53,790 bases of DNA from Candidatus Omnitrophota bacterium (lineage in GTDB: Bacteria; Omnitrophota; Gorgyraeia; Gygaellales; Profunditerraquicolaceae), in NCBI GenBank assembly GCA_043812095.1, contig JBDRMO010000030.1, positions 1 to 53,790 of the forward strand, written 5' to 3'. A program made the translations under genes and the position numbers. The notes beneath the pieces are model-generated. The model worked only from the letters and a program-made list of their open reading frames with translations. It made no database searches and was not told the DNA's origin. This document shows positions 12,063 through 48,902 of this stretch, piece by piece (position 1 is the first letter of the stretch; each line of letters opens with the position of its first letter).

Positions 12063-12076
12063 TGGTATTTATAAAG

Positions 12077-12108
12077 TTAGGGAAGTTTCCACGCGGAAAC
12101 TTCCTTAA
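12077..12108 (-). terminator. hairpin after jag, possible terminator
   Basis: Perfect 10-bp stem GGAAGTTTCC / GGAAACTTCC (12081-12090 and 12095-12104), 4-nt loop, 3-4 flanking pairs. Only a weak T-rich tail on the minus strand. Confidence 0.4.
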
Positions 12109-12147
12109 GGTTCAATACTATTATCTGAAAATTCCTAGTTTTGTCAA

Positions 12148-12351: not shown

Positions 12352-13865
12352 TGCTGCTGCTTAATACGGATTTGATTTACCAACATCAGCGTGCTATTAA
12401 TAAACCAATATAAAACTAACCCGGACGGCATATGATAAAAAATAAACGTAAAGATAATCGGTAAAAAGATCATCATAAACTTCTGTTGTTCAGCCGATCC
12501 ACTGGCTGCAGTAGCCATGGACATTCTTTGCTGAAAAAACATGCCAATACCCATAACGATCGGCAACAGGTTAATTTCATTGCCAATTACTGGTAATGTG
12601 CTAGGCAAAACAAATAAGCGATCTGGTCCTGACAAGTCTTTTATCCAAAGAAAATTAGCTCCGCGTAACACAACTGAGCGCATTAAAGCCTGATATAAGG
12701 ATACAAATATAGGCATCTGCAACAACAACGGCAAACATCCTCCTAGGGGGTTAACTTTATGCTCACGGTACAACTCCATAATCTCCTTATTTAATTTCTG
12801 CGGATTATCCTTATGAAGCTTACGCAGCTCCTCAATATGCGGTTGTAATGCCTGCATCTCCTTCATAGAGCGCATTTGCTTTAAGGACAGCGGATAGAGA
12901 AACCCGTAAACTAAAATGCTTAAGATTACTATTGACCAGCCCCAGTTGTGTACTACGCTATGCAAGAACCCTAGTAATTGCAAAAGGATCTGTGAAATAA
13001 AATCAAAAAAGCCATAATTTACTATCCCAGCCCATTCCGGATGAACACTATTTAACAATTTTAAGTCCTGTGGCCCCAAATAGATATAAAATTTCTCCAC
13101 GAGCCTATCTCCGACCTGCAACCTGGCTTCAATAGGAGATAAGCCAATTTGAGTTGATTGCGAATCTAGCTTAGTAATCATGCCAACGTACTGCGAATCA
13201 ATGGGTTCAATGATTGCTGTAAAGTACCTCTCTCGCAACGCTAAGAAACGTATATCTGGCTGAATTGAACTTTTGTGAGCATTGATTTGTTTGACCTTGC
13301 CATCTCTGCCTACTGCAGCATTGAGATATCTGGACATCATCCGGTCAGCAGCAAAATCAAGAACTCCCAGCGATAAAGGCAAGTTAACATCCAGGGGCTC
13401 GTTAGACAAGTTTTCAATTTCAATTTCTAACTCTATGTTGTACAAACTCTTAGAGAAAATAAAGGCTTTGCTAATCTTTTTCTCTTGGTCAGAATGGACA
13501 AAGGTGATCCTATCCGAGCTGCTTTGAGCTTTTTTAAAGACTAAAGAATTGTCATCTAAGAAAAATGCAGGTGCTAACTTAAAGCGATAGTCTTTATATT
13601 TTTTGAAATTTATTTCCTGAATCGCGGCCTGTGGTTCGATGAAAACTAAATCGAATTCTTCGCGGGTATGATTTATCAGCGCTGAGGAGGGAATTGATTT
13701 TTCAAGGGCTAATGCAGGTGCGGGCGTAGAAACTCCCTGCTTCTGAGGGGGGGATTCTAACGCAACATCTTGATTATCAACAAGTTGCGTCTTAGAAACT
13801 AGGGCCTGCCAACTGAGTAAAATCAACAGGGACAAAGCAATCGCTACAACTAGACGTTTTTCCAT
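12348..13865 (-). CDS. yidC: membrane protein insertase YidC
   Basis: 505 aa with an N-terminal anchor and large periplasmic domain. C-terminal core has QMRSMKEMQALQP, NPLGGCLPLLLQMPIF and LVLYW. Confidence 0.92.
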   Translation of the reverse strand: MEKRLVVAIALSLLILLSWQALVSKTQLVDNQDVALESPPQKQGVSTPAPALALEKSIPSSALINHTREEFDLVFIEPQAAIQEINFKKYKDYRFKLAPAFFLDDNSLVFKKAQSSSDRITFVHSDQEKKISKAFIFSKSLYNIELEIEIENLSNEPLDVNLPLSLGVLDFAADRMMSRYLNAAVGRDGKVKQINAHKSSIQPDIRFLALRERYFTAIIEPIDSQYVGMITKLDSQSTQIGLSPIEARLQVGDRLVEKFYIYLGPQDLKLLNSVHPEWAGIVNYGFFDFISQILLQLLGFLHSVVHNWGWSIVILSILVYGFLYPLSLKQMRSMKEMQALQPHIEELRKLHKDNPQKLNKEIMELYREHKVNPLGGCLPLLLQMPIFVSLYQALMRSVVLRGANFLWIKDLSGPDRLFVLPSTLPVIGNEINLLPIVMGIGMFFQQRMSMATAASGSAEQQKFMMIFLPIIFTFIFYHMPSGLVLYWFINSTLMLVNQIRIKQQQ

Positions 13866-17114: not shown

Positions 17115-19879
<2,765 letters not shown>

Positions 19880-20036: not shown

Positions 20037-22352
20037 ATGTATACTAGAAATGAAAAGATAATTCCGGTTTATATCGAAGAGGAAGTAAAAGATTCTTATT
20101 TGAATTACGCGATGAGCGTAATCGTCGGTCGCGCGCTTCCCGATGTACGTGACGGCCTCAAGCCAGTGCATAGGCGCATACTCTTTGCGATGCAGGAGCT
20201 GAGCCTGAACCATAGCAAGCCTTATAAAAAATGCGCACGTATTACAGGTGAGGTTCTGGGTAAATACCATCCGCACGGAGATACTGCGGTTTACGATACT
20301 CTGGTGAGGATGGCGCAGAGTTTTTCTCTACGCTATCCATTAGTTGAGGGGCAGGGCAACTTCGGATCAGTCGACGGAGATGCGCCTGCCGCGATGCGCT
20401 ACACCGAGGCGCGTTTAGCCGCAATCTCTGATGAGATGTTGGCGGATATTGAAAAGAATACCGTGCGCTTCGGGCCTAATTTTGACTCATCCTTAGAGGA
20501 ACCACTTTTATTGCCGGCTGCCCTGCCCAATCTCTTAGTAAACGGCTCAAGCGGCATAGCTGTGGGAATGGCGACTAATATTCCGCCGCATAATTTAAGA
20601 GAAGTGGCAGATGGGATTGTCTATCTTCTGGATCATCCGCAAGCAGAGATCAAAGACCTGATGAGACATATAACAGGACCGGACTTTCCGACCGGCGGGA
20701 TTATCTGCGGCAAGGGAGGGATCAAAGATGCATATACAACCGGTAGAGGCAAGCTGGAGGTGCGTGCCAGGGCGACTGTGGAGCGTCAAAAAGGCGGTAA
20801 GGACTTAATAATTATTACTGAGATCCCTTATCAGGTGCAGAAAGCAGGGTTGATTGAAACCATGGCCGGGCTGGTAGAGGATAAAAAGATAGAGGGTATC
20901 TCTGATATCCGTGATGAATCCGATAAAGACGGCATGCGTATTGTAGTTGAGCTGAAGCGGGACGTCGAGGCTCAGATTATCCTGAATCAGCTCTTTAAGC
21001 ACACCAGCTTAAAGACTACCTTTGGCGTGATTATGTTGGCTTTAGTAGATAATCGTCCTCGGGTGTTGAATTTACGCCAGGTGCTTGAGTGTTATATTGA
21101 GCATCGTAAGGTGATCATTCGTCGGCGTACCCAGTTTGAATTAGAGAAGGCAGAGAAGCGTGCGCATATTTTAGAGGGATTAAAAATTGCCCTCAAATAT
21201 ATAGACCGGATAGTCAAAACCATCAAGACCTCTAAGTCCACGGAGATTGCCCGCGAACGCCTGGTAAAACAATTCAAGCTTTCCGAGATTCAGGCTCAGG
21301 CAATTTTAGAGATGCAGCTTCAGCGCTTGACTGCGCTTGAGAGAGATAAGATTGATGCCGAATATGCAGAGTTACTCAAAAAAATCGAGCTCTGTAAGAG
21401 TATTCTTGCATCTGAGAAAAAAATCGAAGGCATTATTAAAGAAGAGCTGGAGACTTTAAAGAAAAAATACGGTGACGAGCGCAGGACTGACCTCGTAGGG
21501 GATGTGGAAGAACTGGAGATAGAGGATTTGATTGCCGAAGAGGATGTGGTGGTTACCATAAGCCATGGCGGGTATATTAAACGCCTGCCGGTAAGTGCTT
21601 ACCGTAAGCAAAAGCGCGGTGGCACAGGGTCGACGGGTGCGGGAGTCAAGGAGGAGGATTTTGTCGAACACCTCTTTATCGCTTCGACAAAAGATTATCT
21701 ACTAATTTTTACCAATCAAGGTCAGGTGCATTGGTTAAAAGTGTACGAGATCCCGCAGGCCGGACGCGTTTCTAAAGGGAAGGCAATAGTCAACCTGATA
21801 CAATTGGCATCCGGGGCTAACGTTAGCTCGACTATTCCGGTCAAGGAATTTTCCGCAGATAAATTGTTAGTTATGGTTACCAGGCAGGGGATGGTGAAGA
21901 AGACCCGGCTGGATGCCTATAGTAATCCGCGCAAAGGCGGGATTATCGGGATTACCTTAGACAAGGGCGATGAGCTGATTGGAGTGAATCTATCCGATGG
22001 AAAGCAGGAATTACTCATCGGTACTCGAGAAGGTAAATCTATAAGGTTCCTGGAGACCAAGGTCAGGGATATGGGGAGAACCGCACGCGGCGTACGAGGT
22101 ATTGCTTTAGCCAAGACGGATCGTGTAATCGGTATGGTTTTGGCTGAAAAAGATTCCGCAGTCTTGACAGTGACAGAATTAGGTTTTGCCAAGCGCACGC
22201 CGGTTAAGGAGTATCGTCTCACCAGCCGCGGAGGCAAGGGAGTGATTAACATCAAGGTGACTGATAAGAACGGTGAGGCAATAAGCTTGAAGATGGTAAA
22301 TGATCAAGACGAATTAATGGTGATCACTCAGCACGGCATGTTCCTACGCTGA
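20037..22352 (+). CDS. gyrA: DNA gyrase subunit A, ORF as it stands up to an in-frame TGA
   Basis: 771 aa with [45 protein letters not shown] (catalytic Tyr) and C-terminal pinwheel blades. Confidence 0.95.
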
Positions 22353-22466
22353 GCGATAAAAGATATCCGCACCACTGGACGTTCGGTCCAGGGTGTGAGG
22401 TTGATAAAGCTAGCTGCTAAAGATAAGGTTTCTTCAGTTGCCCACGTCGTTCAAGAAGAAGATTAG
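22353..22466 (+). other. gyrA: in-frame continuation of gyrA (last pinwheel blade) beyond the TGA
   Basis: The same frame reads AIKDIRTTGRSVQGVRLIKLAAKDKVSSVAHVVQEED then TAG 22464-22466. Confidence 0.8.
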
Positions 22467-22470
22467 AATA

Positions 22471-22544
22471 GTCCCCATCGTCTAGCCTGGTTAGGACAAG
22501 AGCTTTTCAAGCTCTCGACACCGGTTCAAATCCGGTTGGGGACA
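22471..22544 (+). tRNA. tRNA-Glu (UUC)
   Basis: Acceptor GTCCCCA/TGGGGAC, anticodon stem AGAGC/GCTCT with loop TTTTCAA, T arm ACCGG-TTCAAAT-CCGGT. Followed by TTTTT; no CCA encoded. Confidence 0.88.
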
Positions 22545-22567
22545 TTTTTATTAACCCGCCTACTATC

Positions 22568-40770: not shown

Positions 40771-40843
40771 TTTAGCGGGTGGCTTGGGCTGATTCCGAGC
40801 CGCGTGGTGCGGCGAGGAACAGGCCAAGACAGGACCCGCTAAA
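40771..40843 (+). other. 73-nt GC-rich rod-like hairpin directly after pyrF
   Basis: TTTAGCGGGT...ACCCGCTAAA perfect 10-bp closing stem. Nested inside are CTTGG/CCAAG, CTG/CAG, TTCC/GGAA and GCCGC-GTGGT-GCGGC. No T tract on either side. Confidence 0.6.
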
Positions 40844-48167: not shown

Positions 48168-48848
48168 ATGAAAGCAGAGAAGATAAGGGAAGCGAAAGAG
48201 TTAAGAAGGCGTGGCTGGTCTGTTAGGGCTATTGCGCAGCAAATACATTGCTCTAAGAGCTCAGTTAGTATTTGGGTGAGAGATATACCTCTTACCACTC
48301 AACAGATAGAGAGGCTCAAAGTAGCCCAAGATAGAGGAAGGGCAAGGGCCGCAAATCACCCAAATAGTTCAAAATACAGATGGGAAAGAATCCGCCAAGA
48401 GATAATTAATACTACGAAGGCGGAGATTCCCAAAGAATACTCCTTAGAGAACTTAAAATGTATAGGCGCTTCTTTGTATTGGGCTGAAGGTTATAACGCT
48501 TCTATAAATTCATTCGTATTTGCCAATAGCGATAGTGTTATGATAAGATTAATGATGAAGTTCCTTAGAGAAATATGTAGTATTCCTTCAGGTAAATTAC
48601 GAGGTCGAGTTAATATACATCCACATTTAGATATTAAAAAATCTGAAAAATACTGGTCAGAGATTAGCGGGATTCCTTTATCGCAATTTCATAAGCCCCT
48701 TTTATCGATAAGCAAGGCTAGCAAGCAAAAGAGGAAGACGTTGCCACATGGAACTTTTCGGATAGTCATTTCGGATGTTCATTTATGCAGTAGAATCAAG
48801 GGGTGGATTCAGGGGTTGAAAGATTGGGCGATTGGCTCAGTTGGTTAG
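48168..48848 (+). CDS. HTH plus LAGLIDADG-like (homing-endonuclease-like) protein
   Basis: N-terminal helix-turn-helix RRGWSVRAIAQQIHCSKSSVSIWV. A central GASLYWAEGYNA...FVFANSDSVMIRLMMKFL resembles a LAGLIDADG core with Glu. The last 23 nt lie inside tRNA-Val. Confidence 0.4.
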   Translation: MKAEKIREAKELRRRGWSVRAIAQQIHCSKSSVSIWVRDIPLTTQQIERLKVAQDRGRARAANHPNSSKYRWERIRQEIINTTKAEIPKEYSLENLKCIGASLYWAEGYNASINSFVFANSDSVMIRLMMKFLREICSIPSGKLRGRVNIHPHLDIKKSEKYWSEISGIPLSQFHKPLLSISKASKQKRKTLPHGTFRIVISDVHLCSRIKGWIQGLKDWAIGSVG

Positions 48849-48902
48849 AGCGTTGCGCTTACATCGCAAAGGTCACAGGTTCGAATCCTGTATCGCCCAC
48901 CA
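48826..48902 (+). tRNA. tRNA-Val (UAC), CCA encoded
   Basis: Acceptor GGGCGAT/ATCGCCC, anticodon stem TTGCG/CGCAA with loop CTTACAT, T arm ACAGG-TTCGAAT-CCTGT, then ACCA. Confidence 0.9.

Follow-up and report, generated by a model that had tools for sequence, protein, structure and literature searches.

The in-frame TGA that interrupts gyrA in a contig of a Candidatus Omnitrophota MAG is probably a one-base lesion of a normal gene, and this lesion would be either an artefact or an unfixed deleterious allele. The whole contig, 53,790 bp in length, was analyzed and is called the window in this report. In the scenario we propose, the third base of the clade-invariant Cys772 codon would have changed from C to A, converting TGC to TGA in an otherwise ordinary gyrA. 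The TGA is confined to this assembled contig and, most likely, does not belong to the working gene of a viable population. Either an error of consensus, sequencing or assembly could have produced it, or the assembler could have taken up a deleterious allele that is minor or recent. The true protein would then be a normal 809-amino-acid GyrA with Cys at position 772. If the gene were instead translated as written, synthesis would halt at the UGA and yield a 771-amino-acid GyrA without most of blade 6. An evolved recoding signal would not be involved in either case. A preliminary description of this DNA had offered three explanations, namely a base-call error, a real nonsense allele and site-specific recoding. 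Our analysis favors the first two. Recoding is not supported, because the TGA is unique to this assembly, the hairpin downstream of it is unconserved and shows no covariation, 58 of 118 Cys-coding orthologues fit the SECIS consensus as this hairpin does, and selA and selD are nearly absent from the phylum.

As assembled, the gyrA ORF extends from position 20037 to 22352 on the forward strand (771 codons plus TGA), and Pfam profiles identify a DNA_topoisoIV domain and five and a half C-terminal blades in its product. This product is identical to the deposited 771-amino-acid GyrA of the window (P0002, MFH1354930.1). The TGA, at positions 22350 to 22352 of the forward strand, follows ...ITQHGMFLR. 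Beyond it, the same frame continues as AIKDIRTTGRSVQGVRLIKLAAKDKVSSVAHVVQEED and ends with a TAG at 22464-22466, which a spacer of 4 nt separates from a tRNA-Glu(UUC) on the same strand (22471-22544; found by ARAGORN, with an Rfam tRNA match of 63.3 bits). The coordinates given in the preliminary description for the TGA, the extended frame and the TAG are exact.

The 37 in-frame codons plus TAG on the forward strand (22353-22466) had been proposed to encode the missing last blade of GyrA, and both profile and structural comparisons agree with this proposal. Six DNA_gyraseA_C repeats are detected by Pfam only when the TGA is read through, and the sixth repeat straddles the TGA. Alignments to the solved GyrA C-terminal domains 5ztj, 1zi0 and 3l6v also cross the TGA and reach nearly to the C terminus, and the 37 codons therefore belong to the folded beta-pinwheel. 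Only the read-through product of 809 amino acids has the full-length GyrA architecture, that is, DNA_topoisoIV followed by six DNA_gyraseA_C blades. A total of 809 amino acids had been regarded as a normal GyrA length, and close relatives indeed measure 809-813 amino acids. In some Omnitrophota, gyrA carries an intein with Pfam Intein_splicing and LAGLIDADG-type domains, as in P0086 (1251 amino acids) and in positions 1-339 of ENA contig L122; the gyrA of the window has no intein.

The column at which the TGA occurs is Cys in all 119 best homologues, which are Candidatus Omnitrophota proteins with 82-96% identity and lengths of 809-813 amino acids. In these homologues the surrounding motif is G[MIV]FLR-C-[AS][IV]KD[IV]R. 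An examination of the residue that orthologues carry at this column had been suggested as a check, and it returned Cys throughout, with no relative ending GyrA there. The closest relative, P0001 (96% amino acid identity), is encoded on contig JBDRLC010000020 of assembly GCA_043813305.1 (hereafter L001). Its codon at this column is TGC, and the flanks are otherwise identical over 29 nt. Therefore, the window differs from L001 by a single C-to-A substitution at the third codon position. Among 118 orthologous loci, the codon is TGC in 78 and TGT in 40, and thus every relative carries TGY (Cys), which was among the ancestral codons that had been envisaged.

Outside this clade, the column is variable: T, S, F, Q, M, L, I and V are found in more distant GyrA fragments, and the best-matching solved C-terminal domain (5ztj) has Thr. 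This variability, together with the Thr of 5ztj, suggests a structural rather than a redox position. Judged from these alignments, the Cys appears to be clade-specific and to occupy a variable beta-strand position of blade 6 that is neither catalytic nor redox, with a presumably structural role. The blade-6 Cys is invariant across about 210 Omnitrophota-like GyrA sequences and variable in other lineages. Many relatives have a second Cys within '...VSCVAPV', where the window and L001 have Ser. The window and L001 also differ just downstream of gyrA (window 22467-22545, L001 12431-12900). L001 has an 89-amino-acid GIY-YIG ORF (12572-12841) between gyrA and tRNA-Glu, at the location of the 4-nt spacer of the window, and this ORF may be a small mobile or homing-endonuclease-like insertion.

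Compared with L001, gyrA as a whole shows 96% protein identity and 90% DNA identity. The 37 downstream codons include 2 amino acid replacements and 5 purely synonymous codon differences, which is the same replacement/synonymous pattern as in the remainder of the gene. Since the downstream codons are under the same purifying pattern, the stop is very recent, is still translated through, or is not real. Moreover, the TGA is the sole private deviation of the window GyrA at otherwise invariant columns; other sequences in the set have 0-4 such deviations. The contig is therefore not generally error-ridden, and this cleanness of the rest of GyrA argues against general error as the source of the TGA.

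Searches of other genomes and metagenomes returned the Cys codon and not the TGA. A degenerate DNA motif of the peptide with TGA fixed at the column had 0 matches in 185,579 GTDB species genomes and 0 matches in JGI metagenome contigs. As a positive control, the same motif with TGY matched at least 120 genomes, and nearly all of the matches listed were Omnitrophota. We also looked for independent assemblies of the same population. An exact look-up of the 771-amino-acid protein gave no match, a search with the GyrA C-terminal fragment gave nothing above 82% identity, and JGI metagenomes, scanned for the exact 29-nt sequence with N in place of the variable base, gave no match. Both protein clusters are singletons.

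Within the preferred reading of a one-base lesion, an error and a real minor allele carry roughly similar weight, with the error slightly ahead. Seen from reverse reads, the TGA comes 16 nt after the strongest inverted repeat of the window, and this is a partial non-biological link that is suggestive only. The geometry fits a model of Illumina sequence-specific errors (PMC3141275). However, typical lagging errors of Illumina match the preceding bases, whereas the base in question is unlike the one or two that precede it, which counts against an error, and there is no GGC within 10 nt. This model is plausible, not specifically supported. That the sequencing was by short reads is a guess, as accessions adjacent to this one belong to MEGAHIT-named MAGs. 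If the assembly is of the MEGAHIT type, at least two reads would have to stand behind an erroneous base, which also counts against an error.

Two other origins of the base were considered and rejected. A Nanopore error at a methylation motif (the putative CTGCGCG contains GCGC) was dropped, because related accessions suggest a MEGAHIT short-read assembly and only one frame change occurs in 47 long ORFs. Template switching at a quasi-palindrome was rejected, because a single switch would also alter A22390 and thereby remove the bulge of the hairpin, which is not observed. The C-to-A (G-to-T) transversion in gyrA belongs to the class produced by oxidative damage, and this is the sole relevance of an Fpg/MutM gene, encoding 8-oxoguanine glycosylase, at positions 36544-37344 of the window.

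Of the 47 long ORFs inspected, two are disrupted, gyrA and pyrK, with only one frame change across 54 kb; the other genes shared with L001 match in length. The gene pyrK encodes the electron-transfer subunit of dihydroorotate dehydrogenase. Its first piece is an ORF at 37951-38565 (204 amino acids, deposited as hypothetical protein ABIH19_02205) that corresponds to positions 4-178 of NF000798. The second piece, at 38546-38725 in the +1 frame, corresponds to positions 186-244. Homologues of pyrK are all intact, with lengths of 248-303 amino acids and 4-6 additional residues at the junction. This junction adjoins an ACTTAC...ACTTAC direct repeat at about 38504-38516, and the pyr operon outside pyrK is intact. 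The pyrK lesion resembles an out-of-frame deletion beside the direct repeat and could be a real mutation. We therefore rejected the split of pyrK as proof of sequencing error, because the loss at the junction near the repeat may be a real deletion. As a second ORF-disrupting lesion on the same contig, it counts for the lesion reading and lends weak support to the error model, and, if it is a real mutation, it makes a real gyrA allele somewhat more plausible.

Two further ORFs of the window were noted during this inspection. An ORF of 119 amino acids at 38736-39095, located between pyrK and pyrD, is preceded by a good ribosome-binding site and overlaps the start of pyrD at an ATGA; its match to the TauE/SafE profile is confined to the C-terminal half (129-237 of 237). 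An ORF of 226 amino acids at 48168-48848 matches HTH_23 weakly and shares 23 nt with the beginning of tRNA-Val(UAC) (48826-48902); the ORF or its end may be spurious.

Broken gyrA genes in other metagenome assemblies also count for the lesion reading. In the unrelated ENA contig L122, gyrA is shattered into at least six ORFs, which illustrates the commonness of assembly lesions in this gene. The window resembles interrupted essential genes of metagenome assemblies in that a housekeeping gene whose conservation is otherwise perfect is broken by one change, on a MAG contig that also has a split pyrK. It differs in that the change is a single substitution in a clean gene, beside an unusually strong inverted repeat.

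This inverted repeat corresponds to a stem-loop to which the preliminary description had drawn attention, 16 nt after the TGA, and it is indeed a real and unusually stable fold. The hairpin occupies positions 22368-22397 of the forward strand (CGCACC-A-CUGGAC / GUUCG / GUCCAG-GGUGUG), with 6 + 6 bp, one bulged A, the loop GUUCG and a predicted energy of -21.3 kcal/mol; as it starts 16 nt past the TGA, the spacer is 15 nt. It is encoded by the codons of RTTGRSVQGV. No 36-nt fold on the forward strand is more stable among the 17,918 segments of this size that were tested across the whole window, and the second most stable (-20.5 kcal/mol) is in gyrB. A 76-nt segment with the hairpin has z = -3.4 relative to dinucleotide shuffles. 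When IRTTGRSVQGVR was resampled synonymously according to the codon usage of the window, energies of -21.3 kcal/mol or lower were reached in 1.5e-4 of 20,000 trials. The corresponding L001 segment (-13.6 kcal/mol) lies at the 3.5% point of the same resampling. Among 119 orthologous segments, its own included, the window has the most stable hairpin, although the TGT-bearing locus L099 is at -20.8 kcal/mol. The window gains one base pair over L001 at each of two synonymous differences, ACT/ACC and GGT/GGC. Since ACC is the clade consensus, at least the change to ACT is probably derived in the window lineage.

Comparative evidence does not indicate that this hairpin is conserved. In 116 distinct orthologous sequences, 53.5% of cells are paired versus 53.9 +/- 0.4% after shuffling, and the score for covariation is the same as the mean of the shuffles. 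CGC-ACN and GTG-CGN are the codon pairs behind the lower stem, and GGA-CGT and TCG-GTC those behind the upper one. The hairpin is codon-derived and specific to this lineage, a by-product of G+C-rich codons in the conserved TGRSVQGVR motif. Other strong hairpins in coding regions, with -18.5 to -20.5 kcal/mol per 36 nt, are present in gyrB (18604-18645), in the 5' part of gyrA (20305-20345) and in carB (35407-35450). Folds at 12070-12115 and 40771-40830 lie just beyond gene ends, the latter after the pyrF stop, and may be candidate terminators.

An unlikely alternative is that the nonsense allele is real and fixed, and that occasional readthrough of the UGA by near-cognate tRNA-Cys or tRNA-Trp maintains gyrase function through a share of full-length GyrA. 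The wild-type protein would be recovered whenever Cys is inserted, the hairpin might help, and the allele might be tolerated or weakly selected. UGA is generally the leakiest stop codon, and here it stands at a wild-type Cys codon 95% through the gene, ahead of an intact downstream frame and an exceptionally stable hairpin. Of the two synonymous differences by which the stem is perfected, at least ACT (the consensus being ACC) is probably derived in this lineage, and the possibly real pyrK lesion on the contig is consistent with a drift-prone, host-dependent lineage. However, the stop occurs in no other genome scanned, and direct evidence for the reality of the allele is lacking. With the UGA in the A site, the 15-nt spacer would keep the foot of the hairpin clear of the ribosomal mRNA entrance by several nucleotides, and it exceeds the 5-9 nt that are typical of known stimulatory structures. 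Moreover, bacteria usually read through stop codons at a background rate of 1% or less, a low yield for an enzyme that is essential. Programmed readthrough of UGA, as in the A1 coat extension of phage Qbeta, shares with gyrA of the window a UGA that is followed by functional, conserved in-frame codons. Known cases differ in that the stop is conserved and both products are used, whereas the relatives of this gyrA all have a sense Cys codon, the structure is unconserved and the short GyrA product would lack part of a folded domain.

We regard it as quite unlikely that the UGA is real and is decoded site-specifically in this essential gyrase, either as Sec, with the hairpin newly recruited as a SECIS-like element, or, by hairpin-assisted readthrough, as Cys or Trp. 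Cys codons account for 4-5 of about 306 single-base routes to a stop in gyrA (roughly 1.5%), and the probability of so strong a hairpin arising less than 40 nt from any given site is roughly 1e-3. Under chance alone their combination is improbable, and this unexplained coincidence counts against the lesion reading. It is because the alignment with Cys and the strong hairpin coincide that we retain a small residual probability for recoding.

It is decidedly improbable that the allele is real and that the 771-amino-acid GyrA without most of blade 6 is functional enough, with the 37 codons left behind very recently as an untranslated remnant. The loss would amount to only 4.6% of the protein, and the catalytic N-terminal domain, a GyrA-box-like KQKRGGTG motif and five blades would be retained. 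Nevertheless, the missing residues are inside the folded beta-pinwheel in every solved GyrA C-terminal domain, they are kept in 119 of 119 relatives, and the putative remnant shows no relaxed constraint. In gyrases that have been studied, supercoiling is abolished when the integrity of the C-terminal domain is lost. Engineered, C-terminally truncated GyrA constructs are comparable in that the integrity of the DNA-wrapping beta-pinwheel needed for supercoiling is lost. They differ in that only the last 37 residues are gone from the GyrA of the window, and in that this truncation is natural or artefactual.

A more specific proposal, which we consider very improbable, is that the UGA encodes selenocysteine through a very recent Cys-to-Sec conversion in GyrA. 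The hairpin, whose loop GUUCG lies 28 nt past the UGA, would serve as a SECIS for SelB, which would bind it and deliver Sec-tRNA. A UGA opposite an invariant Cys (119 of 119 homologues, with TGC or TGT at 118 loci) is the classic Sec/Cys pair by which selenoproteins are recognized, and the hairpin is far more stable than expected from these codons. The bacterial SECIS (bSECIS) consensus, as summarized in PMC13188914, calls for a loop of 3-9 nt, an upper stem of at least 4 bp, a G in the first two loop positions, a spacing of 16-37 nt and an MFE of -7.5 kcal/mol or lower, and we tested sequences with our own implementation of this summary. The hairpin of the window conforms to this bSECIS consensus in all four respects (5-nt loop, 6-bp upper stem, loop beginning with G-U, spacing of 28 nt; MFE of -22.2 kcal/mol). 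However, 58 of the 118 Cys-coding orthologues pass the same test, among them L001 with an identical loop and spacing, as do 16% of random codon positions in the window. The fit to the consensus as summarized is therefore weak evidence.

Other observations also count against selenocysteine. The UGA does not recur at this column in independent genomes and is a singleton in the genome and metagenome scans, and the position is variable and presumably structural rather than redox-active or catalytic. An Rfam search of the window at E-values up to 10 found only tRNA and noise, with no SECIS or other cis-element, and no tRNA-Sec, suppressor tRNA or sel genes were found in the 54-kb contig. We know of no gyrase selenoprotein. 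A term search of a selenoproteome review (PMC13188914) likewise found none. Among complete Omnitrophota genomes, selA and selD are each reported in 1 of 176 (bioRxiv 10.64898/2026.06.07.730766). Bacterial selenoprotein genes of the fdhF type, in which a Sec-UGA is followed by a SECIS hairpin within the coding region, share with the window an in-frame UGA at the Cys of homologues and an apical loop that starts with G-U, 28 nt downstream and thus inside the published 16-37 nt. They differ from the window, where the UGA is restricted to a single assembly, the hairpin is unconserved and has a fit to the consensus that half of the Cys-coding orthologues equal, the GyrA residue would be at a buried, variable beta-strand position with no redox center, and the phylum is almost entirely without selA and selD.

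Genome-wide reassignment of TGA to a sense codon (of the code 4 or code 25 type) has the in-frame gyrA TGA itself in its favor and nothing further, and its probability is negligible. TGA terminates 13 of the 47 long ORFs of the window, several through ATGA overlaps, and in yidC, dnaA, orf102 and orf495 (the last two of 102 and 495 amino acids) it follows identical C-terminal residues in both the window and L001; disuse of TGA as a terminator and widespread in-frame TGAs, which characterize alternative codes, are thus not observed. The preliminary description had already recognized TGA as a real stop elsewhere in the window, and these terminators indicate that it correctly regarded reassignment as refuted.

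If the TGA is a lesion, the deposited 771-amino-acid GyrA (MFH1354930.1) should be read as an 809-amino-acid protein with Cys772 or be flagged as disrupted. The case would then also show that selenocysteine is not needed for an in-frame TGA, aligned with Cys and followed by a SECIS-like hairpin, to turn up in a MAG. At this gyrA site, half of the ordinary Cys-coding orthologues conform to the bSECIS consensus as summarized. If recoding were nonetheless true, this would be, to our knowledge, the first recoded stop codon in a gyrase gene, as we know of no other. It would then offer a rare view of the earliest step in the evolution of Cys-to-Sec conversion or stop-codon recoding, with a Cys codon that has only just been converted.
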